Source: a virus. From it: a DNA stretch of 64,000 bases. This document shows, in pieces, positions 9,612 to 45,411 of the stretch. The position numbers and the translations under genes were made by a program. The stretch spans positions 233,433 through 297,432 of IMG/VR virus record IMGVR_UViG_3300049436_000052; one strand, 5' to 3'. Each line of letters begins with the position of its first letter. The stretch's first letter is position 1. The notes beneath the pieces were generated by a model. That model was given only the letters and a program-made list of their open reading frames with translations, had not been told where the DNA came from and ran no database searches.

Positions 9612-12075
9612 ATGTTTAAAATTGAGAAATTAAATAATATTGATCAAACGTTTGACAAACAGTTATTACCAAATGGTTTTATTAGAAATAAATTTGTTGA
9701 TTTATTTTATATAACATTGATGACTGAGTTTAGCCGTTTATTTAATTATGGGGTAATTATTCCCACCACAACAATATTTACAAATACCTTAAAAGATAAT
9801 TAATAATCTAAATTAAGATGTTTAAGATTGAAAAATTAAATGACATTGATCAAATACTTGATGATTTGTTATTATCAAATGGTTTATTTAGATATAATTT
9901 TGTTGATATGGTTTCTGTAGAATTGATGGATGAAGTTGATTTTTTATTTAATCATGAGATAGGTATTTCTACCAAAATAATACTGAAAATATATTAGATG
10001 TTGAATAATAATTTAAAACAGATGTTTAAAATCGAGAAATTAAATAATATTGATCAAATACTTATTAATCATTTGCTACCATATAGTGTAATTAGAGATG
10101 AATTTTATATAATGTTAATGGGTGAGCTTAATTTTTTAGTTCTGAATGAGATAGATATTTATTCTATATGTATATATAAAAATACATTAAAAGATGAATG
10201 AAAGAATAAATCTATTAATTAGTAGAAAGTTATATGAACGATTTGAACTACAAGTATATGTTCTAAGAACTTACTTTGATAATGATATTGATCTTAGTTT
10301 AGATGATATTTTAACAGATATTTTATATTCCAAATTAAAAGATGATTTTGAAAATTTTGGACAAATATTAAATTTAGAAAATGATCAAAAATATAGATTT
10401 ATTATTTGAAAAAAATATATCTGAACAATTCAAAATGAATCCATATTTGTGGCTATATTCTGATAATGATATTGATTTTAAGTTAAAAAGTACTATATTT
10501 AGTTCTCTATTTTCTGAGATAAATATAATTGATAATCAATTTAATCAAATATTAAGTAAAATATTATCTTTATGAATCCGAAAAATAACTTTAACTTTAT
10601 TAATTTCCATATAACATTATTATTGTTTAAAAATTCGTTTGACGTTCAAATAATAGGTTTTGGTGAAATTATTAAGATAGATGTTTGCAATCCAGACGAA
10701 TATTCGCTTGATATTCATTTGTGCGAAACTATGGGAAACTTTTTTATATGAAAAAAATGGTTGGTAAGTTGTCTTTTAAATATTCTTTAACTTTAGAACT
10801 TCAAAAAATGCTGGAAATTGGTTTACATCATTTTGATGTTGGTTTTATTCGTCGTACAATTAATATAGGTATTACTGATGATGATATTGGTGTTGAAATC
10901 AGAAAAAATCCTAATACATTAAATGAACTTTCTGAATTATATATTTTAATTAATGATGTTTAATGGATAGAATTCTTGATATAAATTTGATAAATTTATT
11001 TAAAATCAAAGGATGTTATTCTCGACCAGATTTTATTAATGTGGATTTATTTCAATTAGAATATGAAGTTTGTTTGAGTCATTATATTTAAGATTTCAAT
11101 TAAATATATAATATAGTTTAACTATGGAAAAAGAAACATTGTTTTATGAATTCCTTGATGAAAAAATTATTATGTTGTTTAACATTAAAGGACTATATTC
11201 TGAACCCGATTTCATACCACCATTATATTCTGGTTTAGTGTCGAATGTTTGCCTAAATGAAGTTTACAAATCTTGTCTTGAACTTTATGAGGTTTGTTAT
11301 TAAATCTTAATTTACTGAAAATGAATAAAATAGAACTTAAGACATTAGATAATGTTTTAAAAATAATTGACAATCTATTATTTGATTATTTTAATAATGA
11401 TATTAGTGGAGAAATTAAGAATTCGTTTAATGAAAACATTTCAGAAATTTTATTAGGATTGGATAGTCTTTTTAAAGAAGTGGGTATTGATGAGATCACA
11501 TATATTTTTGAATGAACTTATCTTCAGATAACATGAAAACAATTTATTTATCATTGCAAAATGAGCATAGTAACTTTATAAATGAAATGAATGATGTTGA
11601 AAGGATATTTCAATTTATGATTGGTTATAACTTTATTAAATTATTTTTCGAATTAAAAGGAAATCTTAGTTTAGATCTTGAAGAATTAAATGATATTAAT
11701 TTTTAAATTAAAATATTATATATGGTAAATGTTTTTAGTAACAATGTTTTAAAGGCTATTGAAGAGGATTTAAATTCAAAATGTATCAGATTCCACATTT
11801 CTTCTAAAGCTTATGAAAGAGGTTATGTTGATGTAAATTTTGAGTTATTAATGATATTAAACGATGATTTTGAAAATATTTTAATGGGTGAGATTGTAAA
11901 TTAAGGAAATGTGAAAAATAAAATTTTTGAAGAAAACTTTCAACTATATTTTAATAGATTATATCAACTTGATGAACTAATTCCATTAGAATTAAGAATA
12001 CTTTTAAATGTATTGGAATTTAATAACCAATATCGGAGAGAATTTGATGATATAGTTTTTTTGTTATCTGATTGA
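9612..12075 (+). other. minigene array A (~13 tandem 40-72 aa ORFs)
   Basis: Head-to-tail short acidic Leu/Ile/Asn-rich ORFs; first three begin MFKIEKLN(N/D)IDQ (9612, 9818, 10022). Confidence 0.75.
9818..9997 (+). CDS. minigene (59 aa), absent from ORF track
   Basis: MFKIEKLNDIDQILDDLLLSNGFIRYNFVDMVSVELMDEVDFLFNHEIG..., paralog of both neighbours. Confidence 0.75.
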   Translation: MFKIEKLNDIDQILDDLLLSNGLFRYNFVDMVSVELMDEVDFLFNHEIGISTKIILKIY

Positions 12076-12735
12076 TTTTTCATCATTAACCAACTTGTTA
12101 ATTTATTATGATAAAAGATTTTTAACTTTTTTTAACATAAACATTAAAACAAATTTTAATAATTGTCGTATAAATAAATAAACTTAGAAATTTTAGGTTT
12201 AAATGCCTATAAAAAAATACAAGAATGGAAGATAAATTTTTTTATGTTTTTAAATCTGATCTTGGTACAAAAGAAAGTAAAATAAGAAATTTAAATAAAG
12301 AACTTTCATCTGCTTTATATTATAAATTAAGTGATTTAATACTTGGTACTATTTTTCAAAGTGTTGAAATTGCATTAACATTTGAAGAAGATGTTGTAAA
12401 TGATTTAGAATTGTGTACTTTTTAACTATAATAAATAAAATAACAATGAAAAACTGGAAGGAAGAGGCTCAAAAAATTTTGGATAAACATTTAACAACAA
12501 TGTTAAATAAATACCCAGAATCTTACAAAACATTAGAAGAAATGACAAAATTGCCTGAATATGAAATTATAATTAATGTAATGTTTGAATTTGCCAGATT
12601 GTACGCAAAAGAAGCTTTTGAAGCAGCTAGAAAATTGGTATTAAATAAAGGCAGTTTTGAAAGAAAAGACACTAATGAATGTTATATAAATATGTTTGAA
12701 ACATTTAACGATTTTTTAACTAATAATAAAATATC

Positions 12736-14580: not shown

Positions 14581-15089
14581 ATGATAAATAACAATATTTA
14601 TAAAAATTTAGATAATGTTTTACAGATAAACATTAATGTATTGGATGAATTAAATTTGGAACTTTATTGTGAACTTATTGATAATTTATATAATACTTCT
14701 GAAGATAGGGAACTTCGTATTGTGTTTAATTTTGTGGTTGAGTAATAAATGGAAAATCAGTTTTACGATAGAATTCAAAAATTTAGTTGGTTGTTTGATT
14801 ATGATATTGATCAGAAAATTTCAATAAATATAAAAAACATAATTTCTATTGAACTTAGATTAGAACTATATAAAGAATTAGGAAATTATTTTAGAATTAT
14901 GTTTAACGAAATAGAATGAATGATAAATTTTTAAATAAGGTTTATAGTGTTGATTGGCATTTAAATTCTGATCTTAATTACCCACTTTCAGGATATTTAC
15001 TTAATTTAGTTTATTCTGAACTTAAATCAGAACTCAATGAAGATTTAAATACTAATATTTATGATATATTTAACGAAATAATTAATTAA
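14581..15089 (+). other. three tandem minigenes (below ORF-track cutoff)
   Basis: Abutting ~55-aa ORFs with ELNLELYCEL / IELRLELYKEL / SELKSELNEDL tetrads. Confidence 0.65.
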
Positions 15090-15972: not shown

Positions 15973-18248
15973 ATGAATAAATTTAATATACAACAGTTTG
16001 ACATTAAAGTACATATTGTCGTTAATTTGTGGTTTAATTTTGACTATGAATTTAAATATAAACTTATATGTGAATTGGAAGATTGTTTAAAAATAACATC
16101 AATGGCGGAGCTTGCAAATCTTGGTAATGAAATTTCAAGAAAATATTAGAATGAATAAAATTTTTGATATAAATTTACATAATAAGATAATTAAAACGTT
16201 TGATTCTATTGAAAATGTAATTGAAAATGATTTTAACTATATCCTATGTGATGAATTGCGTGAACTCATTAGCATTGATAATCGTTTTGGATTGACTGAA
16301 TTAACAAGATCAATTATTGAATGTTTATAATATTCTTTCATAAAAAAATGTTATGGATAAGAAATTTGATGAAAATTTGCTTAATAATATATTTAATATA
16401 ACCAATTTTATTGAAGAAATTGCTAATAACATTCATACTAGATTACTGTTTAAAATTCGTAATATTTTTATCAATAATAACAATACTATTAAATTGAATG
16501 AATTAATGGGTGCGATTGATGAGAACAATTGATTTAACCAGAAATAATCAAATTCTGATGAATATACGAAACTTTGAAAGAAACTTGAATTCAAAACTAA
16601 ATAAGTTTATTTTTGAATTTGAAAATGACTATATTCGATATGATTTTCTTGTTGAACTCTTTAATATTAATATTGATATTGGTGAAGAATATGACTATAA
16701 TATAATTTGTAATGAATAGTTTCTACAATAAATTACTTAGTAAATTTAGTTATAAATATTATAGTGAATTGTTTGGGATTGATAATCTCAACGACAATTT
16801 GTTTTCATTTCTTCGAAATGAATTAGAAATAAACATGGAACTTTATGAGGAGATCGAAACGTTTAATTATAATGAATAGAAATAGGTTATATGATGATTT
16901 GTATAATTTTGTTAATTATAAATTTGATGATGAAATTTGGGATATTGCTTATCTAAATTTAGAAGATAAATTAAACTTATTTCTTCAAAATGTACTTGAT
17001 ATTAATAAAGAGTTATATAATTTAAATGAAAACTTTATTCTTGATGAATGATCAGTTTTATGATATTTTACTTAATAAATTTAACAAGAAGTTAGATTTT
17101 GAATTTAGCAATAAATTAGATAGAAAACTTAATAATGAATTATATCTTACGATTTGGCATGAATTAGATCTTGATGTTATGTACAATATGTTTAATCAAA
17201 GGACTAATTCTGCTTTTTAAAAAACAACATTAATTGTAATAAAATGAATAAATTACACACACCACTTTATAGTAAATTGATATCATTTAATGATCATAAA
17301 CTTGCTGTAGTGACTAAAGAAATTGATGCTGAGTTGTTTTTAGTTCTTTGGGATTTTTTTGAAATGGATGTTTATCATGATATGTTTACTGGTGATAATA
17401 ATTCAGCATTTGAAATAAAATAAGAAATGGAAAATGATATTAATGTTATTGGTGAGTCTGGACACGACTTTGTAGATAAATTATATAATTATACGAATGG
17501 TTTAAATTTAAATTCCTTTATTGATTTAAATTTATTTAAACATTTAGATATTTAGATTTTAATTTTGGAAATTTAAGCAATTTTAAAATATTCTCTAATG
17601 AACTTTCTGAACTATATATTGATACAAAAATTTAGTAATTAATTCTATTTATGAAACGTTTCTTAATCGAAAATGTTTATTTAAATCAAATAGATTCTGA
17701 TTTTTATATGGATTTTGAAATGAAATTTTTATTATCTCTTTGGTCAAAAGTTCATGATGAAATAAAATTAGATATATCTAATCAACAATATGAACTTTAT
17801 CTTGAAATTGAAAAAACATACGAAAATGATTAATAACAAAACATCTTTCGAACCTAGAAAACTTGGTAATAATGAAACTGTTAATGAAATCATCCCTATA
17901 CTTAATATGTTGCTTAATCCAAATCTATATCTTGAGTTAACTGGTAATATATATGTTGAGGTTAATATAGAATTAAAAAATTGTATTGATCTTTCATTAC
18001 ATTTATCTCATTAAATTATGATGAATAGAAATAGATTGTATGTTAAGTTATATAATGGATTAAATCTTAATTTTGATGATGAAATTAATCCTAAACTTGA
18101 TAATTTATTTAACACAAATTTATATGTTGAACTAAAACGACTGTTAACTATTAATTTATATGTTGAAGTTAATAGAGAATTAAAAGACTGTATTGATCTT
18201 TCGTTACTTTTTTATGTTTATATACGAACTTTCTTCAAGGATTTATAA
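15973..18248 (+). other. minigene array B (~12 ORFs)
   Basis: Abutting short acidic ORFs with xxEL periodicity; local paralogs (MNRNRLY twice; NxYVEVNxELKxCIDLSL twice). Confidence 0.75.
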
Positions 18249-20418: not shown

Positions 20419-21621
20419 ATGAAAGTAATTCACAAATCATACAAGTTTAATATTGCTCCTGATAATGAGCAAAAAGAGCTCCTTGCAAAACATTTCGGAG
20501 CTTGCAGGTTTGTGTTTAATCGTTACTTGAATAATAGGAAAGAAAATTATTTAAATGATAAAACTTCCTTAAATTATTATGACAATGCTAACGATTTAAC
20601 TAATTTAAAAAAACAAAATGAATTTAATTGGTTAAAGGAAATTAATAGTCAATCATTACAATCTTCTTTAAGAAATTTAGATACTGCATACAATAAGTTT
20701 TTTAGAAAGCAAAGTAAATTTCCAAGATTTAAATCAAAGTATGATAGACAAAGTTTTACTATACCACAATCATTAAATGTTGAAGTAGATATGTTGTTTA
20801 TACCAAAATTTAAAGAAGGTATTAAAATAAATTTACATAGAGAAATTAAAGGTAAAATCTTGTTTGGTACAATATCCAAATCTACAACAGGTAAATATTA
20901 TGTAAGTATAACTTGCGAAATAGAATACACTCCTATTGAAAAAACAAATTCAAAAGTTGGTATTGATACTGGAATTAAGGATTTGGCAATATTATCTAAT
21001 GGTAAAACATATAAAAATATTAAAACACTTAAAACCAATTTAAAGAAAATAAAATATAACCAAAGACAATTATCTAAAAAAGCAAAAGGAAGCAATTCCA
21101 GATTAAGACAAAAATCAAAACTTGCAAAAGTACATGAAAAAGTAACCAATATTAGGAAAGACTATTTGCACAAAGTCACTACAGAAATAATCAAAAACCA
21201 CGATGTGATTTGTATTGAAGATTTAGCCGTAAAAAATATGATGAAAAATCATAAATTATCACAAGCATTTTCTGATGTTGCTTTAGGTACTTTTTATACA
21301 ATGTTAGAATATAAAGCTAATTGGAATGATAAGACAGTTGTTAAGATTGACAGATATTTTCCAAGTAGCAAAACCTGTAATGTTTGTAATTACATTAACC
21401 AGGATTTAACATTAGATATTAGGGAATGGACTTGTCCAGATTGTAATACAGTACATGATAGGGATTACAATGCAAGTTTAAATATATTAAAACAAGGATT
21501 AAATATATTATCTGGTTCAGGAATTGAGTCGGATATAAAACAAAAACGTAGTGAGGCGTTGCCATTAGGTGAGTCTATGACCTACGAAACCCAACCTATT
21601 GCTATTAGCGTAGGTGAGTAG
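20419..21621 (+). CDS. tnpB: IS200/IS605-family RNA-guided endonuclease TnpB
   Basis: N-terminal HTH (FGACRFVFN), RuvC D (GIDTG), E (IEDL), Zn finger (CNVC..CPDC), HDRDYNA. Confidence 0.95.
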   Translation: MKVIHKSYKFNIAPDNEQKELLAKHFGACRFVFNRYLNNRKENYLNDKTSLNYYDNANDLTNLKKQNEFNWLKEINSQSLQSSLRNLDTAYNKFFRKQSKFPRFKSKYDRQSFTIPQSLNVEVDMLFIPKFKEGIKINLHREIKGKILFGTISKSTTGKYYVSITCEIEYTPIEKTNSKVGIDTGIKDLAILSNGKTYKNIKTLKTNLKKIKYNQRQLSKKAKGSNSRLRQKSKLAKVHEKVTNIRKDYLHKVTTEIIKNHDVICIEDLAVKNMMKNHKLSQAFSDVALGTFYTMLEYKANWNDKTVVKIDRYFPSSKTCNVCNYINQDLTLDIREWTCPDCNTVHDRDYNASLNILKQGLNILSGSGIESDIKQKRSEALPLGESMTYETQPIAISVGE

Positions 21622-21646: not shown

Positions 21647-21678
21647 GAAAAAAATTAACGTTCTTTAACTATAATAAC

Positions 21679-21713: not shown

Positions 21714-21907
21714 ACCCACTGCCTAAAAAGTAGATAAGCGAAACTTATTAAAGATATTTTAGGATGGTATAAAGAAAGTCCAATTCTTTCCTGTGGGTCG
21801 AATGCCGTTCGAATCGGCTCGTTGATTGAGGTTAGGTAAGTGACAAGGTTTAATTCCTTGCAAATTAGTTGATACTACAAACAATCTGGCAGCTTGGAAA
21901 GACAAGC
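21714..21907 (+). ncRNA. structured non-coding RNA candidate
   Basis: ACCCAC/GTGGGT, CCTAAAA/TTTTAGG, ATAAG/CTTAT, GAAAG/CTTTC, GCCG-TTCGAAT-CGGC, CAAGG-TTTAATT-CCTTG, GCTTG-GAAAGA-CAAGC helices; GC-enriched. Confidence 0.65.
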
Positions 21908-22514: not shown

Positions 22515-22554
22515 AAAATCCCTGAGATTAAATTTAGTTTCAGGGATTTTTTTT
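22515..22554 (+). terminator. intrinsic terminator; core identical to 25603-25636
   Basis: AATCCCTGAGATTAAATTTAGTTTCAGGGATT hairpin. Confidence 0.75.
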
Positions 22555-22642
22555 GTTCCACATAAAACATTATGTTAATATTTATTAAAAATTGTTTACT
22601 TTAACATTTATTTTTTAATTTTGCAAAAATAACATAGCTTAT

Positions 22643-23658
22643 ATGTTCGAAAATAGTTTTGATAGTGTGATTAATGATAATCTTAATTGTTCAGATATAG
22701 GTTTTCCGTTTGATTGTAATACTTTTCCATATAATAAACTTTTAAATTTATTATATGATGATATGGATGTAGAATTGAGTCAGCTAAATTTTAATATACT
22801 TATTCATTGTAGTTCTTTTTCTGATTAATTAATAAGATAATATGACAAATTTTGACAATAAACTACACCAATCAATAACATTTCCATATTTTGATTATAA
22901 TATCTTGCTTAATGATCAACTTATTCATTTCTTGTCTAACAATCTTTATATTGAGTTAAATGATTTAAATAATAACATATCTACTATTTTAATATGAAAT
23001 TACCTAATCCAGAATTTAATGAAGATCTTTTTAATAAATTATTTAGGATTTTCAACAATAAATTATTTGAAAATATACGAAATGAATATTTTCAAATCGT
23101 TGAAAGCAAATCAAATATTGAAATACAAACTGAAGTTAGATTTTCATTAGTGAAAGAATTTAAAATTGATCTACTAAACGAAATTTCTAAACTATTGTAA
23201 TTAATTGGTATATTCTTATGAAAATAGATTTTTATAACACAACTCAAGATGATTTTTATAACATAATTCAAGATAATTTGGATGATAATTTTCGTTTAAG
23301 ATTATTGTATGATATTACTGCATTATATTGTCCAAGCATTGGAGGTAACAAATTATCAAAGCCATTACACCGTGAACTTATAAATACATTTGATTTTATT
23401 AGACTTGAAATATCATTTAATAGGTTATTTGATGTTAGTTTTTAATAATAAAATAATATATAAATGAAATCTATTGAAATAATACTTTATGATAAATTAA
23501 ATGGTTTTGATAAAAATTTATGTAATGATCTTATTAATGGTTATGTTTTATCAATTAAAGGTGAATTAAGTAGTGAATTACACAATGAATTTTATTTTGA
23601 AACTAAACAACTTCTATTTTTTGAAACATTATCCCTTTTGAACTTACCAGGAAAATAA
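22643..23658 (+). other. minigene array C (5 ORFs)
   Basis: Short acidic ORFs behind TAATTTTG (22616-22623). Confidence 0.7.
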
Positions 23659-25231: not shown

Positions 25232-25725
25232 GTTAATTTTTGACATATGGAAGATACACATAAAACTAGGCAATATCTTAAAGAACTAAATGCAGTTTTT
25301 GTAGAAGATAAAATAATAGTAAGTCCAGCAATTATTAATAGTAAAATAGCCGTATTTACTCGAAAATATTATAAAAAAAGAAACAATAAAATTTGCTATG
25401 TTGATACAAACATAGTATTATTTAATGTTGAGTGGGATAAAACCAAAACACACAAAAACGTTTCAAACATCTATATTAATGATTGGAATAATACGTTTTT
25501 TAAAAATGAAATTACAAAAATTTCAAAAGAATATAAAGAGGAACTGATCGAAAAATACATTAAAATACATGTTAGTTAGTTGTTTATAATTGTTTATGCT
25601 AATAATCCCTGAGATTAAATTTAGTTTCAGGGATTAATTATTTTATATAATAGCACTTACATAAATATCGTTTTACATAATAATTTTTAATAAATTACTC
25701 CTAATAAAATATATTTATTACCTTT

Positions 25726-27681
25726 GTGAAAAAATATTCAATAATTAATCTTAATTTAAGTTTTATGCAATTACTATCAGGACTATCAGGTTTAACAGAA
25801 TTTGATTTATTTAATTTTAATTCTGATTTAAAAATTTGTCTTTGGACTGTTCTTTATAGTGAAATTAGAGGTAGTCTAAGTATAGAATTTAATGAACTTA
25901 ACAATAATATCTTTTTATAAATTTGTGACAACAATAGATAATAAACTTAGTATAAATCATTGGTCAATATTTTATCATACAAGAATTACTGAAAGTTATT
26001 TTTGGAATGTTCTTGATGATGAAGGTAAGAATGATTTAGCTATAGAACTTAAAGAGCTTAATATATTATTTTATGTAAATTTATGAAAACAATCGAACTT
26101 AATAATAAAAAGTATTATAAACTCCTAATAGACACACATAGCCTTTGGAGCGAAATTAAATATTGTTTTAATGATGAATATTTAAACCAAATTTATGACA
26201 TATGCAAAGATGAATTTGAGGGGTTGTGGGATGAACTTAAATTAGAATTGGATTATATATTATAACTAATGAATTGTAATGTTATGAAAGAAACAAATGT
26301 AGATGTTAATATAAATTTGGCCAACACTTTAAATAAAATTATAAAAGATATAAACTGTCAATATAATTTAAAACTTTGTATTGAACTTAATAATCTTCTA
26401 TTTATCGATTTATATCCTATGGCTAATGAATTACTTTATATAGATTTATGAAGAAAATATTAAATTCAAGACTAGTTCAAATTGGGGATGATTTTTATAA
26501 GGATCTTGCTAAAAAAATTGAAATTGAACTTCAGAAATTTCTATATAATCAACTCTTGTCTGATTTATATAGTGAATTTTATCCTGAGTCACCATTCGGA
26601 AATCTAAATTTATAAAATTTAAATAACAATGTTAACGTTTAATAAATTAATCGAAATAAAACATTATCAAAATGTTGAGTTCTGCAATAATTTCCATAGT
26701 GAGATTAAGACAGAAGTTTGGAATTTTCTATATAGAGAAATTAAATCAGAATTGCATGAAAATTTTGATAACGAATTTTATATAATATTTAGTGAAATAA
26801 TCAAATAAACCTTGTGTTATGTATGAAATAAATGTTAAGTTTATCACACATTGGTATGATAATATTAATATCTATGATATTTTTTATAGTAATCTTGATA
26901 ATGAACTTTGGGAATTTCTTAACGATAAAATTAATCTTGATTGCTATAGAGATTTCAAAGAACTTGATAGAGAATTAAGTTTTTATAGAAATTTATGAAA
27001 AACAATGGATGATAAACTCAATATATATTGCTATAGTTTTAATTCAGAATTTTGTGATAAAATTTATCACAAATGCGATGATAAACTTTTTAAAGAATTT
27101 ATACATATATTCAATAATGTGTTTACCGATACATGGAATATGCTTACTATAGAATTTATGTTATGAAAAAAACAAATAAAATTTTTATTAAAAATATAAA
27201 TAATACATTATTGGATATTGTGTCATTAGATTTAAATTATTCATGTGGTATAAATTTTTATATTGAACTTAAAGATAAATTATTTAATGATTTGTATCAT
27301 ACATCTAACGAAATCCAATTACTTTAAAATATGACAACACCACATAAAAAAATAGGTATTCAATTTGATAGAGATTTATATTGTGAACTCGCTGAGAATA
27401 ATCTATATGATAATCTTTGGAAATTTCTTTATAAAGAACTTACTAAAGATTTAAATATTGAACTTGATGTTTTTTCAGGAATAAATAAGGAACTTATAGA
27501 TTGTATTAATTTATAAATGAAAAAAACAATATTATTTAATATTATTTTTAATCGATATAATACTCAATTATTCGAAAACCCTCTTATTAAAAATAATGTA
27601 GATAATAAACTTTATGTAGAAATATTAAATATATGTTATGTTGAATTTTTCGAATTGTTTTATGAATTATATTATATTTGA
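25726..27681 (+). other. minigene array D (~11 ORFs)
   Basis: Abutting 50-64 aa ORFs, often ATGA-coupled, with LWxFLYxEL/IEL tetrads; TACCTTTG at 25719-25726. Confidence 0.75.
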
Positions 27682-27705
27682 TTAACATTCTTTAACTAAA
27701 ATACT

Positions 27706-27731
27706 GAAACATTAAATCAAATTTCAACGTA
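27706..27731 (+). promoter_or_regulatory. ECF-type promoter
   Basis: GAAAC-N17-CGTATAAG. Confidence 0.8.
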
Positions 27732-27771
27732 TAAGTATTATATAAACAATTAACAACTAAAAAATATAATC

Positions 27772-30049: not shown

Positions 30050-30065
30050 TGTTCCACGTGGAACG
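30050..30065. promoter_or_regulatory. parS-like palindrome
   Basis: TGTTCCACGTGGAACG. Confidence 0.75.
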
Positions 30066-31397: not shown

Positions 31398-31580
31398 TTG
31401 TTTATATGAATACATTTTCTTTAATCCCTTATGTAAAATATATGTAGGGGATTAATTATTTTAAATAAAATACTTCTAAAAAATAACATTAAATAAATTT
31501 TATTTAATGAATTTAATTGGATTAATTACTTTTACCGAAATTTATAAAACAATTTTAGAAAACTTTAAAAAAATAATGAT

Positions 31581-31730
31581 ATGTGTAATGAATTTAATAA
31601 ACTTGATATTGAACTTTATAGTAAAGTTCATACTAATCTTTTTATTGAACTTTGTAATGAACTTTTTAATGAACTTCGAAATGAGATTTGTAGTGAATGT
31701 GATGAACTTAATAGGAATTGTATGATCTAA
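31581..31730 (+). CDS. minigene (49 aa) with clear 12-nt/4-aa repeat
   Basis: MCNEFNKLDIELYSKVHTNLFIELCNELFNELRNEICSECDELNRNCMI; different frame from ORF-track 31507..31725. Confidence 0.7.
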   Translation: MCNEFNKLDIELYSKVHTNLFIELCNELFNELRNEICSECDELNRNCMI

Positions 31731-31754
31731 TAATATATACCTTAAGATAAATTA

Positions 31755-31770
31755 TGTTCCACGTGGAACA
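31755..31770. promoter_or_regulatory. parS palindrome
   Basis: Perfect TGTTCCACGTGGAACA. Confidence 0.8.
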
Positions 31771-31812
31771 CTAAATATATTTATTTTATTAACATCCTTT
31801 AACTATATTAAC

Positions 31813-31838: not shown

Positions 31839-32434
31839 TAAGAAGTATATATAAACAATCTAAAACAATAATCTTATGAAAACAATTCAATATTATGTAA
31901 CTTCTGACAATGTTCATCATTTAACAGAAGAACAAGCAAACAAACATGAATCTCAAATCATAGAAGTAAAAAAATTTATCGAAAACGAAGTTAATCAATG
32001 TCATGATGAAGATTTTTTTATCTGTTATAAAACCGAACCATTTCCAAAAAATCATTTATATTGCAATAGACATTATGAATATTTTAACGAATATAACTTA
32101 TATTATGAAATCGTTATACACTCCATATCAACAAGCGTATATTTTGAAATTGGAAATGTAGAAAAAATAAATGTAAGAAAATAAAATTACATAGCATATT
32201 TTGATATAAATTATTTTCAAATCCCTTATGTAAAATATATGTAAGGGATTTCTTGTTTTTAGATATAACGTTTAATAAATTACCCTGAGATAAATTACTT
32301 TTACCGAAATTTATAAAACAATTTCATATATCTGCTTTTAAATAAACTACCTTAAACTAAATTATCTCTCAGAAACTTTGTTTTAAATTTGCCTTGAGAT
32401 AAAATTTATTTCTTACCTTTGTGAAAAAAATGAT

Positions 32435-32593
32435 ATGAATAATAAACTTTCTAATAAAGTTGATAATAATCTTTGTAATGATCTTTCCAAAGATATTACT
32501 AGAAAACTTCATAATGATCTTTCTTTAAAGAACGAACTTTGGTTTAAACTTGAAGTTGAAATTTGGAATAATCTTTCTATTTACAACATTTAA
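32435..32593 (+). CDS. minigene (52 aa)
   Basis: MNNKL-SNKV-DNNL-CNDL-SKDI-TRKL-HNDL...; TACCTTTG at 32414-32421. Confidence 0.65.
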   Translation: MNNKLSNKVDNNLCNDLSKDITRKLHNDLSLKNELWFKLEVEIWNNLSIYNI

Positions 32594-33118: not shown

Positions 33119-33134
33119 TGTTCCACGTGGAACA
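33119..33134. promoter_or_regulatory. parS palindrome
   Basis: Perfect TGTTCCACGTGGAACA. Confidence 0.8.
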
Positions 33135-33611: not shown

Positions 33612-34898
33612 ATGAAAATAGATAAACTTACAAAAGAACAAGAAGAAAAATTATCTTCATATAGAATAAAATGGTTGAATAAGATATTTAACTATGATTT
33701 GTATAATTCAATAACATTTGAATCTGTAAAAGAAAAAATGAAAGAATTGTATAACTATTGTAATTTAGATGAACCACTAGTAATTTTATGTGATAGTCCA
33801 TTTGCTTGTCAAATTGCTGTTAATATTTTTAAAGTTGAGGATCAAGTTGGGGATCAAGTTAGGAATCAAATTTGGAATCAAGTTTGGAATCAAGTTGGGG
33901 ATCAAGTTGGGGATCAAGTTAGGAATCAAGTTGGGGATCAAGTTAGGAATCAAGTTTGGAATCAAGTTGGGGATCAAGTTGGGGATCAAGTTGGGGATCA
34001 AGTTAGGAATCAAGTTAGGAATCAAGTTGGGGATCAAGTTGGGGATCAAGAATATTTTACATTTTCTTCTTATATAAATTATAGTGATTTTGGATGGCTA
34101 TCTTTTTTTGATTTTTTTCTTAATGAAAAAATAATTAATTCGAATTTAGTAAATCAATTCAACAATATTATAGATTATGTAAATAATTCGTTTTTATCAA
34201 TACAATTAGATAAGTTATGTATTGTAAGCAAATATCCTTCAAAAATAATTAGAAATGAAAATAATCAATTGCATAGTATTTCAGGATCTGCAATTGGATT
34301 TGGAGATGGATATGAACAACATTATTATAATGGCATTTTCATAAAACCTGAACTATTTGAAAAACTTATATCTAAAACATATACTTTTGAAGATTGGACA
34401 AAAGAATCTAACGAAGAAATAAAAAGTTTGGTTTTGGCATTTTATGAAGAAAAGTTTGGAGGTGAATTTGTTTATAGGTTTTTATCAAAACATTTGAATG
34501 AGGTTAATACATATGTTGATAAAAAATCAGACGAGTATTTGAAAAATACGACCAAAGGAATGAATTTAGGGGTATATACATTATTTAAAGGAAATATTAA
34601 TAATAATAAGATAGCGTATGTAAGATGTTATTGTCCTTCAACTGATAGAATGTTTTTTTTAGGTGTGCATCCAAATAACAATAATGCAAAAGACGCTATT
34701 GCATCATTATGTCAAGTTCCAGTAAAATTAAAGGATGAATTAATTTCAATAAACAGACAAGGTGAAATATTTTCGTTTAATTTTACTGAAAAGGGAACAA
34801 ATATGTTAAAAAATAAAGAATTAACAAAAGAAGATTTCCTTAATGTTGTTTCTTTATCAGGAAATGAGTATTTTTGTAAAATAAAATTTGAATATTAA
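33612..34898 (+). CDS. DUF6745-like protein with tetrapeptide repeat
   Basis: MKIDKLTKEQE N-terminus, DSP motif before the repeat, WLSFFDFF, LH...G.AI.F.DG, C-terminal CPSTDRMFFLGV...A.DAIA. Confidence 0.75.
   Translation: MKIDKLTKEQEEKLSSYRIKWLNKIFNYDLYNSITFESVKEKMKELYNYCNLDEPLVILCDSPFACQIAVNIFKVEDQVGDQVRNQIWNQVWNQVGDQVGDQVRNQVGDQVRNQVWNQVGDQVGDQVGDQVRNQVRNQVGDQVGDQEYFTFSSYINYSDFGWLSFFDFFLNEKIINSNLVNQFNNIIDYVNNSFLSIQLDKLCIVSKYPSKIIRNENNQLHSISGSAIGFGDGYEQHYYNGIFIKPELFEKLISKTYTFEDWTKESNEEIKSLVLAFYEEKFGGEFVYRFLSKHLNEVNTYVDKKSDEYLKNTTKGMNLGVYTLFKGNINNNKIAYVRCYCPSTDRMFFLGVHPNNNNAKDAIASLCQVPVKLKDELISINRQGEIFSFNFTEKGTNMLKNKELTKEDFLNVVSLSGNEYFCKIKFEY
33840..34049 (+). repeat. 12-bp coding tandem repeat, 17.5 units
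   Basis: CAAGTT followed by GGGGAT, AGGAAT or TGGAAT = (D/N)QV(G/R/W). Confidence 0.95.
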
Positions 34899-35147: not shown

Positions 35148-35424
35148 TATAATAAAAATCTTTTTTTATATAACTACTTCTAAAGAATTGCTTTTAACTA
35201 AATTTATCTCATAACAATTTATTTAAAATCCTTTATAGAAAATTTCTGTAGGGGATTTTTTTTATTAATAACATTTATCTAATAACTTTAAAAGAAATAT
35301 CTTTAGAGTAAATTATGTTTAACTAAATTTATTTAAGTACTTTTCATTAAATTTTTGTTATGTTCCATAAATATACTTAATAACTATTATCTAAAGACAT
35401 TTAAGAAATTTTAACTATAATAAG

Positions 35425-36244: not shown

Positions 36245-36777
36245 GAATTTTTTATAACATAATTTATTTCATAACGTTTAACTAAAATTTTATAACTATG
36301 GGACCAACAATTCAATTTATCGTATTAGCTATTATTATATTAATAGTAATAGTCTATAAAGCACTTACACGCAAATCTAGTGCAAGCAAAACAGAACCTG
36401 TAATAAACCCTGTAATTAAAGTAGACAATTTTCTTGCAAACTGGAAAAAGAAATGTCAAGAAGAATCTTTTGCAGGTCAACAAGAAGTTGAATTATTACG
36501 AGAATGCAATAAGGAAATAAGAGAGAAAAGCACAGAAAACGCAAAAAAGATTGCAGATTTGAAAAATTTAAATAAATAACTTTTAATGAATTACATTTAA
36601 TGAAATCCTTTAGACTAAATTTTGTTTAAAGGATTTTTTTTATACATTGCCCTGAGATAAAAATTAGTTAAACGTAATTCATGAGATAAATTTTGTTAAA
36701 CGTAATTTAATGCTAAAACCTTAAAAAACAAACAAAACATAATGCTATACCCTGAAATAAATTTTAACTATAATAAG

Positions 36778-36803: not shown

Positions 36804-37276
36804 TAACATAGTATTAAACAATCTAAAACAAAATATTATGACAATTATAGAATCAATAAAAAATGTTCTTGGTTTATCCAAACAAAAATTTGAATCAAAA
36901 AAGGCAACAAAGAAATTAAAGAAAGCAACTGAAGAAGCTAAAAAGAATATTGCCAAACGTTATAAAAATGTAGTATAGTAAATTACCCTGAGATAAATTT
37001 GTTTCAGGGTATCTTTATAAAATGTAATTAAGTAAAATTTATCTAATACCCTTTAATATGAATCGACACAATAAAGTAAAAGAAATTTTGGAACATGCAA
37101 AAGAAATAAATACAAATCTTGCAACTATTGTATTTTTACTAGCAACATTAAACGATAAACAACTTACAAAATTTTATAAGGGATTTTTATCAAAAGTATC
37201 TAATGATACACCCAAAGATAATATGACAAACGAATTAAAATAATTTTATCTCATAGCAATTTATTAATCATAATTT

Positions 37277-37963: not shown

Positions 37964-38181
37964 TAATAAATGTTGCTAAATAAAGTTATTATATAAATGT
38001 TATTAGGGGAAATTTATTTAATGACATTCTATAAATGTTGTTAGGGGAAATGTTACTAAATAAATTTTATGTTATGACATTTAATAAACAACCTTTTATG
38101 AATTGGTTTTAATTAACAATATTTAATAAACTTTAACATATAAATATGATTAGATAAATTTATTATATAGACTTTTTATTA

Positions 38182-38197
38182 TGTTCCACGTGGAACA
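38182..38197. promoter_or_regulatory. parS palindrome
   Basis: Perfect TGTTCCACGTGGAACA. Confidence 0.8.
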
Positions 38198-38237
38198 TTT
38201 TCTTTGTGTATAATGGACACACACCATAACCGTCCCT

Positions 38238-38345: not shown

Positions 38346-39332
38346 GTATAATTAACATTTTATAAATTCCTATAAAGTTATTATCTTTGCATAATTTCTA
38401 AGGTCATAATTTTTTCTAAAAATTTTTTTAGAAGTTTAAATTTAAAGCAAGTTTATTAAATATTTTTTTTTCAGGGCTATAAAACAAATTTATTTTATGA
38501 AATACAAATTAATAAAAGGTATAAAGGAAAGATTATATGATGAATTGATGCGTACTAAGTTTGATAAATATCATATAGATGTGTTATATGATATTTTGTT
38601 TGATGAATTGAATACATATGATGAAGAAATAGATAGGATTATATCGGATTCGCTATATATTTAAATTTAATTAAAAGTATTTTATGGAAAAAATTTTAAT
38701 TGACAATTTAATGAAAAATTTGGTAGATGAATTAATTGACAAGCCTATATTCATCTACTTGCCACCTATTTCAACTATGAAAACGGATTTTTATAAAATT
38801 TTGTTTAATGATTTATATGAAAAATTATCAGAAGATGAATTTGAATTACGAAGATTATTTTAATAAACATTATTTTATGAAAAGTATAGAAAACAATTTT
38901 ATATCGCCATTCAAAAAGAAAATTCATTTAAATGATGAGTTAATTAATTCTCACACTCATTTTTATTGTTTGGGAGATAATAAAGATTTAACAGATGATT
39001 TGATAAAGGAAATTTATTCAAAATTAATTAGAGAAATAAACAGAGAACGTATTTCATTAGAGAATGGTGTATTTTTTTTGATAGCTTAATTACAGAGAAA
39101 AGCATGGGGTTTCTGGATTTGCCAGTAAATTATATTTTAAGAAATATTTAGTTATGAAAGATGAATTAAGAAAGAGAATATCAATAAATTGGGAAGATGA
39201 GTTATTAGACTATGGAATTTTATATGCAGTTAAATTTAGCAAAGATACACGTCTAAGTCTTTTACATAAAATTTTATTTAATGAATTGGATTCACAAGAT
39301 GATGAATTAAAAAACATTCTTGAACAAATAAT

Positions 39333-39722
39333 TTAATTCATAGTAATTTCATGAATCTTATTTAAAATAATAGATTCTTTTTTATAGGTTCTGGGTGAAG
39401 ATAATCTTATGATATGAATTTCATTATCTTTACAAAATCTATTTTTTAATTTATCGGTTTTTCTAATTCGTTTAAGTTTTTTTAAACCATAAATTGGTTG
39501 TGTATGATGTAAACCATCATATTCTATAATAAGATTATACTTAGGAAGATAAAAATCAAATGGTAATAAATTTATATTACGACAACTATTAAACACTTTT
39601 TGATAAATGAATTCTAAATTATTTTTGATTAAAATCTCAGCAACAATTTTTTCACCTGTTGACATTTTATCCTGTGTTAAATTTGTCATAAATTTGTTAA
39701 TTAAATATAAAACAATTCGCAA
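39333..39722 (-). CDS. Vsr/DUF559-like PD-(D/E)XK endonuclease domain protein
   Basis: STGE...LPFDFYLP...IIEYDG.HH...DKLKN.FC...I.IIRL; true start may be MTNLT. Confidence 0.75.
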   Translation of the reverse strand: MRIVLYLINKFMTNLTQDKMSTGEKIVAEILIKNNLEFIYQKVFNSCRNINLLPFDFYLPKYNLIIEYDGLHHTQPIYGLKKLKRIRKTDKLKNRFCKDNEIHIIRLSSPRTYKKESIILNKIHEITMN

Positions 39723-41012
39723 ATTTAAATAAATATTTTATATTTGTTGGTTAATAATCCTGAAATATTTTCATTTAACAACAAATTTACTATGAAGTCA
39801 TTTATTAATAAGAGTTATAAAATTTTAGTTATTGTAATTTATAAAAAAAATGTAAATGATAGATAATTTATTATGTGGTATAAGAAAGAATTTGTATGAT
39901 GAATTAATTCAAAACATTTTTTATCGTGATTATATTTCTGGAAAAATAGTAGAAAGAAAATTTATAGATTTGTTGTTTAATAATTTATTTGAATTAACTG
40001 AACAGGATTTTGAATTGTATGACACTATTGAATAGATAATTTAGCTCAAAAAAATTTATTTCAAAATAATAAGTTTAATTAAATTTACTAAAGAAATTAA
40101 TTATGAAATATAAATTATTAACTGGTATAAAAAAGAATTTGTATGATAACTTTATTGGCGAATATATAATTTATACCACAATTTCTTCAATTATAGATAA
40201 TGGTTTATATGATAATTTGCTAAGTAGTTTATATGATGAATTACGTGATATGGATGATGATTTTCATTTTTTATTATGTAGAACAATTTATTTTATTTAA
40301 ACAATATTTAGAGAAATTTAGTTATTATAATTTATGAAAATAAACAAATTAAATAAAAAATTATTAAATAGTTTGTGTGATGAGTTAATTATTAATTATT
40401 GTTCATTTATTTGTATATCAATAAAAACTTCACCAAATTATATGAAAATTTCAGATAGCTTATCATTTCAAGAATTAAATATGGAATCAGATATATTAGA
40501 TAGTATGTTTTGTCAAGAAATTAGTGAATAAGATTTATTTCATAACAATGTATTTGAAGTGGTTTCTTTACCCTAATTTATAAAAAAAATTAGTTATGGA
40601 CATTGATTTAGAAAATAACATTAGAAGTTTTTTGAATGATGAGTTAATTAATCATTCTATATTTATTGGTATTAATTTGACATATCTGAATAAAGATATT
40701 TATTGGGTTTTATATAATGATTTATTCGATGATTTACATAATATTGAACTTAGGTTACATCAAATAATATCTATAAAAACTTAGTTACTATGTTTACAGA
40801 AAAATTAGATAACAAATTACGAAATTTAGAAATACTTAATATTATATTAACAATAGACAATGATTTAATATATGAATTGTCTGACAAGATTTGGGATGAA
40901 ATACATTTAAATAATCAGGAATTGTTTATAACGATAAGTAATATTTTGTTTAATATCAATGATAATATTAAATATGACTAAGATAAATTTGGATTATAAT
41001 GTTATTGCACAT

Positions 41013-41063
41013 ATTGATAGCAATATTATTGATAGCAATATTATTGATAGCAATATTATTGAT
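41013..41063 (+). repeat. 15-bp tandem repeat inside a minigene
   Basis: ATTGATAGCAATATT x3 (IDSNI). Confidence 0.9.
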
Positions 41064-44000
41064 AATTTAAAGGATGAATTAATATCATCTAATAAATATA
41101 TAATTACATTAGAATTAGATGATATTAATTTTTTATTGGTAAATGAATTAGATGTTATTTTACTTAGAAGTCTTTTTAATGAAGAAAATGATTTACATGA
41201 GTTAATGTTAGATGTTATTTAAAACTATTAGTTAAAGGTAATTTATTAAAAGCAGTTTAATAAACTAAGTTTTATGATAAATTTTAATGAGAACTTATTA
41301 GGAAAAATAAGTAATGAACTTGAGGATTCTTTATTGAAAATAGGTTTAGTGAAGTATAAATATAATATAGAATCGACCATATTTAGTGAATTACATGTGG
41401 AAATATTTAGTGAATTGTATGGGGAAGTATATAATTCAGAATCAGAATTATTTTTCTCAATAACGCAATTATTAGATGATGAAGAATATTTATGATTATC
41501 ATTAATAAAAATTTAATAATGATTTTAGTTAAACGGGATGGGAAATTAATAGCCTTTAAATTATAAAATTGATTAATAAGTATTTTTATCTAAAGGTTAA
41601 TATGTAAAATTTATATTATGATAAATATAATAAGATTTGAAAATCAACTTATCAATAAATTATCAGATGAATTAATACAAAGTGAAATTGCAGTTCCACA
41701 AAATTATTTAGAAGGTCTATTGTGGTTTGATTTGAATTTTTGGGATACTGAATTAATTCATTCTATTAATATTGAATTATAAAGGACTAATTTATAATTT
41801 TTATGTTATGATATCATTACAAAAATTTATCTGACGAATTGATAGATAGAAATATTTTTATATATTCTTATTCTAATAATAGAATATTACGAGATTTGCT
41901 ATTGGTTGAAATCTATGTGTGGGATTTTGATTTATTTGATTCTATTAATATTTGTATATAAGATTTTTAGTGAGCATGTGTTATGATAAACATAGTAAGA
42001 TTTGAAAATATTATTTTGAACAATATGTCTGATAATTTGATAGATAAAAATGTGTTTATAAAACCTTATTCTATAACATTTTATAATATAATATACGATT
42101 TATTAATAACTGAAATAAATGAGCAAGAAAATGATTTATATCGTTGTATTAATAGTAAAATATTTGAATTTTAATAAACATTGTATTATGAAAAACAAAC
42201 TAAATGAAAATTTAATCACAAATTTATCTGATAAATTAATAGATAAAAGTATTGTTATAAGTCCATTTCTTAATAAAAAAATATTATACGAATTGTTGTT
42301 ATTTGAAATAGATCTACAAGACAGTCGTTTGATTATGTGTGTTGATAGATGTCTATTTTTTTAATAAACATTATATGAACATGATGACATGAAAGACCGA
42401 TTATAATAATTAATTAATGGTGTTTAAGTTATGTTTGAGAAATCTTTAGAATTAAAATTTTATAAATATCGTTCTATGCGTTATGCAGTAAGTTTTTTTG
42501 AGAATCTACTTATCAATAATTTATTAGATGAGTTAATAAAAAGTGAAATTGTTTGTTGGTCTGATGTGTGTTTCTCTACATCACTTAAATTATTATACAA
42601 CGAATTGTATTTTGATATTAATAATAGTAATAGCAAATTAATACATCTAATAAATGCACAAGTTTGAATCATATTTTTACAAAATTAAGATTTTATGAAA
42701 ACATTTTTAAATAAATCTTAATTTTTTTAAATTTATAATTAAATACAATGATGGGTTGGTAAGGATTTCAGTAGATTCTGTTAAAAATAAGAAATAATAT
42801 AAAAAAATATGGTTGATAGTCGATTTTCTTGTAGTCATCTTAATAAGTATGACTTATTTTTTGATGCTGTAGAACCCTATGGTGTTTATATAAAAGTTGT
42901 TTTTGGTGATGTAGTAATCAAAGATGAAGAACTTGATTTATTATTAAGAATATCGATTATTAATAATAATATGTAAAAATATGACTAATAAATCTTTTAA
43001 TAAGAAATTTATTCACAAGAAACTAGATAAAGCAATATTTGAATTGGAATTGGAATCAATGGAATACGATGAACTTGGATATAAGTTATATTTTGAACTT
43101 AGAAAAGGTTTATACAATAATATTTTTAGTGATTTACATAACTTAGTAATTTTATCAATTAAATAAAATTTACTAAAGAAATTAATTATGGAATATAAAT
43201 TAATAATTGCTATAAAAGAAAATTTAGAGGTGTTAGCAATTATGAATTGAATGACATTTCTGGTGAAGTTTTTATTTTTTTAAAGAATAGTTTTTCAGAT
43301 ATTGAGGACAGAAATAATGAATTATCTACTTCACTTTTTTACTTTATTTGATTAAATAGATAAATTTGTTGATAATAAATTAATAATATATTTTTAAATA
43401 ATTATGGAATATGTTGAACTAACTTTTGAAGGAACTGTTGAATCTAACTTATTTCATAATTTCATTTATTCTTTAGATGAAGATGTATTTAGCGATGATC
43501 TTATTTATAGTGATGTTGGTAGTATATTACAAGATTTCGAACAACTATTAGATAGTATTTTTGTTTGGGAGTTAATAGATTTAATTTAATAAAAAACATA
43601 TCATATGTTAAGATTTGATATAGATTCTAAAAATAAACTTTCAAGTGAATTATCTGATGAATTAATTAATATTACCAGTATACTTTTTCTATATAGAGAA
43701 GATGTGTTGTCGAGTGATTTATATAAGGAATTGCGTGGTATATTATTTATAGAATCATTTAATATATGTGATGATTTAAATGATATTTTAAAAAATGAAC
43801 TAGGATATGTTTATTAATTTAATTGTTCTTTTCTTAGCATTTTAACAAAAAACGAAAAAATGCTATTACATTTAATAATATAATTTTTATATATGAAACA
43901 AAATTTTTGACTATATTTTCCATCTATGGAAGTTAGAATAAAATCATTATTTGAAGATTCTTGATACCATGCAACCATGTTCTTTTTAAAAATAGTTGAC

Positions 44001-45411
44001 ATGGGTTTGATGATTTTAACTAAAGTATTTTCCATAAAATAGTTTTAAAATAAATAGTTAAACAATAGACAATAATACATTCAAAAAAATATAAATATGA
44101 ATAATATTTTAACCGGAAATCTTCTTAATTCTTTATCTGATGAACTTATCGATAAATTCCTTTGGTTTAATACCAAACCACATTTTTATTACGATCTATA
44201 TCTTGAAATGAGTAATATATTATATTCAGAAATTTCTGAAAAAACTATTGAATTAGATAATGCAATTTCTGCCGCTTTTAACCAAATAAATTTTATCCAA
44301 TGAAAAAAATAGATGAATTATTTTTTGATAGCGATTTAACAAAAAATCTTCTTGATGGAATTTTAGATAGTTTAATTGATAGTTTTTTTATATATTCTTT
44401 GCGCACTGTTTGCATTGATAGGGATTTACAAAAAGAATTAAATAAATTAATAATTGATGAAATGAGGAATAATGACGATCAATTAAACGGAGCGTTTGAC
44501 AATACAATATATTTTTTACCAAATAACGAATTCTAAAACATGAATAATTTAGAAAATATACTTTTAAATAAATTAAATGATGAACTTATTGATAATTATG
44601 CTATTTTTTATTTACCTAATAACTTGTTAGAAGAAAAAGTTTATGTAGAATTGATAATATTGGTGAGAGATGAAATGGAAACTCTTGATGATATGTTAGT
44701 TATTGACTCTTAATTCTTTTGAAATTAAATCTGTAACATCATCCAGTATGTAGTGATTAAATTCTAGGTTATTGAAAATAAAATGCCTTACTAGAACATC
44801 GGTTTTTTTCTCTATTGAAGAATTAAATTTTTCATGTATTTTAACACAAATTTTATCTAATCTATTACAAATCTTTAAAATATTTCTTTTATGAGGGAAT
44901 TTCATTTTGACATATAATTATTTCAAGAATTATTATCTTTTTTCCATTTATTAAAAATTTCTATTTGCCTTTTTGTTAATTCTTCAGCCTTTTCTGATAT
45001 TTTTCTTAAAAGATTATTTTCTTCTTCGTTAGTTTCGTCCCACATTTTATCTTCACGATAACCCAAATAAGATAATAAATCAATAAACATCATTTCATTT
45101 GAAGTTTTTAATTTACTTTCTAGTGGAATGCTTTTCATCAAATCTTCTATTAATTTTGATGTATATTCTTTGGGTTTAGGAATCTTTTTCATTATTATAT
45201 AACATTAACATTAAATCATGTTCAAAATCTATTTTTAGTAAATCACCAATTTCTAAAAAAAGTCTTCTACTAACCTCATAAAAGAAATCTTTATCCTTCA
45301 TAGTAGTAAAATATTTACATTTTTTTAAAACTTTTTGACGTGTTTTAATGCTATTAGTTTTAAGTAAAGCAAGTGTTGAAGAATCAATGTGGTTAAAATT
45401 CATAGCATATT

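Follow-up and report, generated by a model that had tools for sequence, protein, structure and literature searches.

Tandem gene expansions have been described in jumbo phages: in phages G and 121Q, upwards of 30 similar genes stand in tandem arrays (Hua et al. 2017, PMC5646251), and Bacillus phage G holds a lineage-specific expansion of zinc-ribbon genes of about 35 copies (Iyer et al. 2021, PMC7824862). Here we describe arrays of tiny acidic genes, which we call minigenes, in a stretch of 64,000 nucleotides (nt) (the window) that corresponds to bases 233,433-297,432 of IMG/VR virus record IMGVR_UViG_3300049436_000052, a single contig of 334,326 base pairs (bp) with 25% G+C. An earlier reading of the sequence (the original prediction) had proposed a library of 75 to 80 paralogous minigenes and held that no described system shares this architecture, a claim that is too strong in view of the two reports above. 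As in the arrays of phages G and 121Q, we find in a giant phage tens of head-to-tail copies of small genes, a pattern read as tandem duplication or lineage-specific expansion; the homologous genes are adjacent, number in the tens and are lineage restricted, as in other jumbo-phage tandem expansions. Unlike those arrays, however, the minigene families show no sequence relation to them (searches of Pfam, PHROGs and PDB sequences gave no match). Their proteins are much smaller (∼62 amino acids [aa]), with one or two predicted helices and no zinc ribbon or globular fold; they fall into several subfamilies rather than one set of very similar genes; and they show an exact four-residue (12-nt) periodicity, with members that consist of the repeat only.

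Tandem families of variable copy number are also found in African swine fever virus (multigene families MGF110, MGF360, and MGF505) and among the host-range families of poxviruses, where they are thought to act on host defenses. These too are tandem copies that are gained and lost where a large virus genome evolves rapidly, but the hosts are eukaryotic, the proteins are folded and much larger, and no homology is expected. T7 Ocr, T4 Arn, phi29 p56, PBS2 Ugi, and many anti-CRISPRs are small acidic proteins, often helical and usually orphan, that are encoded in accessory regions. The minigene proteins are likewise small, acidic, predicted to be helical, orphan, and encoded in an accessory region, whereas the proteins listed above are single-gene products with defined folds and known targets, and our searches gave no match to them in sequence or fold. 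We know of no acidic phage inhibitor or DNA mimic that exists as a repertoire of ∼70 copies or as the product of a tetrapeptide repeat. The SPO1 gp37-60 cluster and the early small genes of T4 are host-takeover modules arranged as dense one-strand operon runs with many start/stop overlaps. Similar dense one-strand runs of small genes occur in the phage studied here, in which 11 gene junctions are ATGA overlaps, as expected in operons; the takeover genes of SPO1 and T4 are mostly unrelated to one another, whereas about half of the minigenes are paralogs. Small phage proteins have been reviewed elsewhere (PMC11323111). What is new here is the family itself, with its proteins of one or two predicted helices and its split into several subfamilies, together with an exact tetrad periodicity that includes repeat-only members and a design that is conserved between relatives when the sequence is not.

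Reality, rhythm, and kinship of the minigenes

Between 9.5 and 44.8 kilobases (kb) of the window, nearly all long open reading frames (ORFs) lie on the + strand. This strand holds 109 ORFs of at least 50 aa, compared to 9.0 ± 2.9 in first- and second-order Markov shuffles, and ORFs cover 76% of it, compared to 4.6% in the shuffles; the minus strand of the same region has 16 ORFs of that length. We trained a codon model on 96 large genes that lie outside the block, and it favored the annotated frame in 90 of the 91 small ORFs. Among the controls, it did so for all 168 ordinary genes held out from training, for 28 of the 43 antisense ORFs, and for 6 of the 19 ORFs that overlap off frame. The minigene proteins are also included in the independent JGI gene calls. 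Given the ORF excess, the strand coherence, and the fit of 90 of 91 to their own codon frame, we concluded that the minigenes are real genes and not the ORFs to be expected of random AT-rich DNA. Shine-Dalgarno signals were seen neither in the minigenes nor in the large genes and so cannot be used as evidence of translation. Some 70 of these tiny genes, of ∼62 codons each, take up ∼20 kb of the genome.

Several traits ascribed to the minigenes by the original prediction were borne out. Their length is nearly constant (median, 62 aa; interquartile range, 55 to 70), and Leu, Ile, Asn, Phe, Asp, and Glu are enriched relative to large genes, with Gly, Ala, Pro, and Thr depleted. Small ORFs of the block have a mean net charge of −2.5, compared to 0 in other small ORFs, and demonstrated family members have a mean of −3.5. 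A basic N-terminal stub, which had been offered as a family trait, is instead a general property of this genome's genes (+0.53 in the minigenes versus +0.56 to +0.64 in other genes). Head-to-tail arrays occur at every place that had been proposed, along with singletons (Table 1); the array at 63.0-63.4 kb does hold three ORFs, but on the minus strand.

The proposed tetrad rhythm was also recovered. Identity between residues is elevated at lags of 4, 8, and 12 (0.114, 0.102, and 0.090, compared to ∼0.07), as is identity between nucleotides at lags of 12, 24, and 36 (0.374, 0.370, and 0.353, compared to 0.33), and both signals are absent from the other small genes and the large genes of the same genome. 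The periodicity is carried chiefly by Leu, with contributions from Glu, Asp, Lys, and Phe, and Glu/Asp recur at lag 4; it persists when ORFs with detected tandem repeats are dropped. Hydrophobic power peaks at 3.8 to 3.9 residues, not at 3.5 to 3.6. A few ORFs remain plain DNA repeats, such as the two single ORFs with 12-nt units listed in Table 1 and a stretch with a 24-nt unit at 41379-41430. Because the rhythm is exact and integer, growth through slippage of 12-nt units accounts for it better than does plain helical amphipathicity. The hydrophobic periodicity of heptad (3.5) or hendecad (3.67) coiled coils was considered and rejected, given the position of the power peak and an autocorrelation with positive values at lags 4 and 8, unlike at lags 3 and 7.

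A 12-nt repeat was also observed in a gene of another kind. The DUF6745 gene at 33612-34898 contains, at 33832-34050, a 12-nt unit in 18 copies that encodes (Gly/Arg/Trp)-(Asp/Asn)-Gln-Val tetrads; its 355-aa paralog (genome positions 203,133-204,200) and a 343-aa gene of G001, a relative described below, are both shorter. The same slippage process seems to act here, outside the minigenes.

We assessed paralogy by all-against-all phmmer comparison with shuffled and reversed decoys. At E ≤ 1e-3 there were 104 matches between real sequences, compared to nine from real to reversed and one from real to shuffled, which corresponds to a false discovery rate of ∼4% after correction for the number of comparisons (∼4 to 10% over both cutoffs). 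Of ∼93 small + strand ORFs, 41 (E ≤ 1e-3) to 47 (E ≤ 1e-2) have a detectable paralog, so that by sequence comparison about half of the small ORFs are demonstrated paralogs. Another ∼25 look similar by eye and have no significant match, and ∼20 are plainly different, encoding membrane or basic proteins. The figure of 75 to 80 is thus right as a count of look-alike ORFs and too high as a count of detectable paralogs. The biggest linked group comprises 16 to 32 members in the region and 8 or 9 genes elsewhere in the genome.

Two layouts recur among the linked genes. E-type proteins (alignment A1) consist of two helices, L..L.DELI at the N terminus and LY..L..EL at the C terminus, joined by a hydrophobic linker; iteration of this family converges at 26 members with zero decoys, and 19 or 20 copies (one of them N-terminally truncated) lie at 38.5-44.7 kb, with seven elsewhere in the genome. 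B-type proteins (alignment A2) have Leu at every fourth residue and end in LY.EL..EL..E (pattern L...L...LY.EL..EL), and their genes are located at 14.7-15.1, 16.7-18.2, 23.5, 25.7-27.5, 31.6, and 32.4 kb. We looked for one hidden Markov model (HMM) common to all of the arrays. Iterated profiles join members of arrays A (A2), B, C, D, and E without shuffled decoys, but the links are weak, reversed-sequence decoys start matching near an E value of 1e-3, and groups A1, A3, C2, D2, and F separate; the trio at 9.6-10.2 kb, the trio at 63.0-63.4 kb, and several pairs stay apart from the joined families. Direct comparison of the E-type (A1) and B-type (A2) alignments with hhalign gave a probability of 48%, a weak link. 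At the level of sequence profiles, we consider the link between arrays no more than suggestive.

Neighboring minigenes are often each other's closest relatives, in agreement with the original prediction. Of 59 best paralog matches, 27 lie within 500 bp and 40 within 2 kb, where random pairing would give 1.6 and 5.0. One duplication is fresh (a 163-nt unit at 63.1-63.4 kb with 80% identity), and one copy is visibly broken: at 43160-43403 a near-perfect copy of the leader and start of gene 40103 is followed by a 2-nt indel that leads to a premature stop. This pseudogene and one truncated copy are the only clearly broken copies that we found, and the arrays are otherwise almost wholly open, although only 3.3% of simulated neutral copies are still open at 30% divergence and 1.7% at 40%. 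After correction for composition, excess identity between paralogs declines from codon position 2 to 1 to 3 (0.47, 0.35, and 0.26), and true orthologs that have diverged to a similar degree rank the positions alike (0.60, 0.47, and 0.23). The ratio of nonsynonymous to synonymous substitution rates (dN/dS), a check that had been suggested for neighboring copies, was 0.3 to 1.0 in 18 paralog pairs, plus one outlier, with a median of ∼0.63. Given that neutral copies rarely stay open at the observed divergence, and given the order of the codon positions, we concluded that selection keeps the frame and the polar/hydrophobic pattern and little else. The adjacency of relatives, the pseudogene, the 163-nt duplication, the paralog dN/dS, the frames that have stayed open, and the low conservation of the block (see below) together support the birth-and-death, diversifying repertoire that had been envisaged.

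AlphaFold2 modeled the B-type member 26629 as a single helix spanning residues 4 to 58 (55 residues; predicted local distance difference test score [pLDDT], 90.7) and the E-type member 44540, with low confidence, as two helices (pLDDT, 67.6). Since a 55-residue single helix is unlikely to be stable alone, the model implies a partner or self-association. A four-copy complex model of the B-type helix scored 0.01 against a mark of 0.42, with controls not run, and is counted neither way. A search of PDB with the single-helix model in Foldseek gave no match, and the ESM Atlas gave no usable match by features and only unspecific helical overlaps by structure. Similarity in sequence or fold to a known DNA mimic or anti-restriction protein of the Ocr/ArdA type was considered and rejected, as Pfam, PHROGs, PDB-sequence, and Foldseek searches gave no such match. 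Such proteins bind DNA-binding enzymes through surface carboxylates arranged like the DNA backbone; of features that bear on this, the minigene proteins show only net acidity and the lag-4 recurrence of Glu/Asp.

Distribution across relatives

The contig is recorded as a virus with a CheckV completeness of 100% and encodes a terminase large subunit, a family B DNA polymerase, an SbcC-like nuclease, and a tail-spike-like protein; at 334,326 bp, it is above the 200-kb size that defines jumbo phages. Its proteins were found on one JGI/IMG contig only. Searches of cultured phages with the window proteins and the DNA polymerase gave only remote matches, to Salinibacter and Nostoc phages at ∼25% identity, and the same queries also matched, distantly, uncultured phages of 630 to 640 kb. 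Given this single contig and the remoteness of all cultured matches, its source is an uncultured jumbo phage.

To place the minigenes among other sequences, the E-type profile was run against one representative per 50% cluster of ∼15 billion proteins (1.84 billion searched). It returned 17 proteins, all of them the window's own, and one low-complexity false match. Word-indexed searches for B-type proteins returned seven, all from this phage, from its 340-kb relatives, or from one 3.2-kb contig; a search for fused or longer B-type forms found none, which is weak evidence. The E-type alignment contains no stretch conserved enough to serve in a search for related loci, and such a search with a single minigene gave 44 pattern matches, none of which was a relative.

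Fourteen IMG/VR contigs encode DNA polymerases 54 to 64% identical to that of the phage. One relative, G001, is complete (339,898 bp with terminal repeats), and its DNA polymerase is ∼60% identical. In a comparison with G001, only 8 of the 92 small ORFs and 3 of the 24 large ORFs in the minigene block were matched, versus 132 of 291 large ORFs elsewhere, making the block the least conserved part of the genome. E-type genes were found neither in G001 nor in four other relatives. G001 nevertheless has a block of its own (36-64 kb), whose 69 small + strand ORFs have a median length of 62 aa and a mean charge of −3.1 and show raised identity at the same lags of 4, 8, and 12; two of them are almost pure (x-Ser-Glu-Leu)n, with a 12-nt unit in 7.1 and 13.6 copies. 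B-type profiles match ∼15 G001 genes weakly, and some of these genes were used in building the profile. Judged from these searches, the minigene families are restricted to one clade of uncultured jumbo phages. Across this clade the design, meaning length, charge, and rhythm, is conserved, and the sequences are not.

Transcription signals and surroundings

The minigene arrays sit apart from the terminase and tail-spike-like genes (genome positions 11-15 and 126-129 kb). The genes around them have no assigned function: among 20 mid-size genes of the block, a Pfam scan found only Kyano_Gp96 and a subthreshold DUF2726. Arrays that hold E-type and related minigenes also occur outside the window, so that the families are spread over at least three loci (Table 1).

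A phage promoter motif, TTAAC-N5-TTAAC-N9-GAAAC-N16/17-CGTATAAG followed by a TATATAAACAAT leader, has 19 matches in the window, compared to 0.6 expected, and its TTAAC-N5-TTAAC part occurs at 41 sites genome-wide. By its sequence, the motif looks like an extracytoplasmic function (ECF)-sigma promoter with a phased upstream direct repeat, and the two ECF-type sigma factors of the phage are candidate readers that probably recognize its GAAAC...CGTA elements. The 13 + strand copies between 12.1 and 33.6 kb precede nonarray genes or, at 21655, a noncoding stretch; none lies within an array. Arrays D0 and D and ORFs 31581 and 32435 are each preceded by a strong terminator hairpin, and several of these have a TAnnTTTG box just upstream, such as the TAATTTTG box at 22616, 27 nt upstream of the first ATG of array D0, and the TACCTTTG box at 32414 before minigene 32435. 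A TTTG-N19-TAnnTTTG match, of a motif not enriched overall, lies at 9558-9588, 24 nt upstream of the ATG of array A (9612). A scan for the sigma-70 consensus found fewer sites than in shuffles. That some arrays follow a terminator and lack an ECF-type promoter fits their transcription by a different, possibly host, form of the polymerase. The phage-specific promoter class splits the block into arrays and ordinary genes.

The hairpins belong to a family with the forms AATCCCTGAGAT...CAGGGATT and AATCCCTTAT...AAGGGATT, and CCCTGAGATAAA-like words related to them are repeated many times at 32.2-33.1 kb. A perfect palindrome, GTTCCACGTGGAAC, recurs in intergenic positions scattered over the block (30051-30064, 31754-31771, 33119-33134, and 38181-38198) and resembles chromosomal parS sites. 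The window also contains two TnpB/IS605 OrfB genes of 400 aa each, at 20419-21621 (+) and 52714-53916 (−), both of which match the same G001 gene (E values, 1e-198 and 4e-177); the first is followed by a G+C-rich, noncoding stretch at 21714-21907. At 54818-56404 (−), the N-terminal domain of a dATP/dGTP diphosphohydrolase is fused to or interrupted by a LAGLIDADG domain, which may be an intein or a homing endonuclease, and an IMPDH/GMP-reductase-like gene lies nearby at 51233-52312.

Table 1. Minigene arrays and transcription-related features (window positions unless marked as genome positions)
Feature	Position	Strand	Details
Array A	9612..12075	+	13 small ORFs; MFKIEKLN trio 9612/9818/9998; pairs 10194/10381 and 10963/11124
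Array B	14581..15089	+	3 small ORFs; 14749 and 14916 B-type
Array C	15973..18248	+	12 small ORFs; linked 16712/16845/17790/18018; pair 17026/17244
Array D0	22643..23658	+	5 small ORFs; after terminator hairpin 22515-22550
Array D	25726..27681	+	11 small ORFs, mostly B-type; after terminator hairpin 25603-25636
"Young" tetrad ORF	31581..31730	+	49 aa; 12-nt tandem repeat, 5 copies, 31638-31697; matched by both E and U profiles; terminator 31421-31455 upstream
Single B-type minigene	32435..32593	+	12-nt repeat, 4 copies, 32440-32487; terminator 32219-32251 upstream
Array E	38497..44713	+	∼23 small ORFs, 19-20 of them E-type; broken up by minus-strand genes 39333-39722, 42707-42838, and 43814-44035
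Decayed E-type copy	43160..43403	+	Copy of gene 40103
Minigene trio	62972..63445	−	52-53 aa, very acidic; no HMM link to other minigene families
Array outside window	Genome 16.2-18.1 kb	−	Six or seven minigenes
Array outside window	Genome ∼53.6-55.4 kb	−	Six or seven minigenes
Promoter motif	12122, 18276, 18875, 20021, 21655, 23668, 24214, 27682, 28243, 29321, 30100, 31789, 33536, 50164	+	Example, 27682..27771
Promoter motif	1826, 7613, 9493	−	
ECF-type sigma factor	4342..4995	−	Sigma70_r2 + r4_2
Second ECF-type sigma factor	Genome 182.3-182.9 kb	+	Sigma70_r2 + r4_2
Similar terminator hairpins	22515-22550, 25603-25636, 31421-31455, 32219-32251, 35225-35259, 36602-36637, 36984-37011		

A proposed repertoire of host binders and its alternatives

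We are highly confident that the minigenes form real, selected, tandemly duplicating gene families. The explanation that we favor is that these are lineage-specific multigene families of an uncultured 334-kb jumbo phage, each gene of which would encode an acidic alpha-helical protein of ∼62 residues, with one long helix in the B type and a helix, hydrophobic linker, and helix in the E type. New copies would arise by tandem duplication of whole genes, and helices would lengthen by slippage of 12-nt units encoding x-x-Glu-Leu. The copies would then diverge fast, with selection preserving nothing beyond an open frame, protein length, negative charge, and the pattern of polar and hydrophobic residues, and some would decay. 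In the infected cell, the proteins would be made as a diversified set of binders, in which the acidic amphipathic helix may dock onto a host protein, be it part of a defense, a binder of nucleic acids, or other machinery, and either block it or redirect it, and rapid turnover would track host variation. We read the minigenes as acting on the host because of their rapid turnover, high copy number, acidity, partner-needing helix, and function-unassigned surroundings, and a design that is kept when the sequence is not points to a rapidly adapting set of binders. Binding of host proteins or counterdefense is nonetheless a tentative assignment, which we would sooner doubt than accept. To the explanation as a whole, lineage-specific families serving as a set of host binders, we give slightly less than an even chance.

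Several observations weigh against this explanation. The periodicity may have been left behind by mutation instead of being a design under selection, and the weak hhalign link between families may mean that several unrelated families have become alike through the repeat process. The dN/dS values are only moderately below 1, with several pairs near 1, and are distorted by the strong AT bias. Matches to the Bacteroidota-type motif TTTG-N17-21-TAnnTTTG are not enriched (4 found versus 6.9 expected), nor are TAnnTTTG matches, which number 76 and 66 on the two strands, enriched over chance; because these candidate host-type boxes are not enriched, we assign promoters to the arrays by position only. 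In addition, no terminator separates arrays B and C from the ECF-type promoter upstream of them, so that an "early" class is not general.

An unlikely alternative is that several unrelated small families share one accessory region and resemble each other through helical tendency and AT-rich codon bias, which concerns Asn, Ile, Leu, Lys, Phe, Asp, and Glu. This would account for the weak pairwise and profile links between subfamilies, the matching of reversed decoys at about 1e-3, and the roughly one-half of small ORFs that have no detectable paralog. Composition does not explain, however, why the exact signal at lags 4, 8, and 12 is missing from small and large genes of the same composition and survives the removal of repeat-bearing ORFs, and iterative searches join A2, B, C, D, and E without drawing in shuffled decoys.

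Slippage might also have done more than lengthen existing helices. In a repeat-born repertoire, to which we assign a low probability, the phage lineage would continually form new proteins de novo: slippage of a 12-nt unit encoding x-x-Glu-Leu would itself yield open, helical, acidic ORFs, and their duplication and diversification would give ∼70 single-helix rods that decoy DNA- or RNA-binding defense proteins of the host. The carboxylates of these rods, placed every four residues or ∼6 Å along the helix, would imitate a polyanion such as a nucleic acid backbone. If true, such a repertoire would generate variable binders by expanding repeats, with no dedicated diversity-generating enzyme.

We also think it quite unlikely that the arrays are a mutational by-product, in which 12-nt slippage and tandem duplication produce expressed junk or raw material for new genes. 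The existence of plain 12-nt repeat ORFs, the 18-copy repeat inside the unrelated DUF6745 gene, the pairs with dN/dS near 1, and the near absence of sequence conserved with G001 are what such a process would leave behind. Neutral copies would nearly all have gained stops, however, and only one clear pseudogene and one truncated copy were found; codon position 3 is the least conserved after composition correction; and the two phages, whose DNA polymerases are only ∼60% identical, have kept the same median length of 62 aa along with charge and periodicity. Least probable is a role within the phage itself (as self-assembling acidic coiled-coil rods serving as scaffolds, charge-balancing internal or ejected proteins, or partners of its own basic DNA-binding proteins), which the need of a 55-residue helix for a partner or self-association and the broad hydrophobic stripe formed by Leu at every fourth residue and a neighboring aromatic would suit, but structural parts are usually conserved among relatives as the minigenes are not, seventy diverging copies are ill suited to a stoichiometric part, and the arrays lie apart from the terminase and tail-spike-like genes in a block of function-unassigned genes.

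Tiny genes for an acidic helix make up roughly one in every eight or nine genes, both in this phage and in G001, its 340-kb relative. With repeat-only, diverged, and decayed copies side by side, the arrays appear to show a protein family in the course of being born out of a 12-nt repeat. If the targets of the favored host-binder set are host defenses, the arrays would offer a wealth of new inhibitors; if they are not, the arrays would still provide a clear natural case of the origin and turnover of small proteins in viruses.

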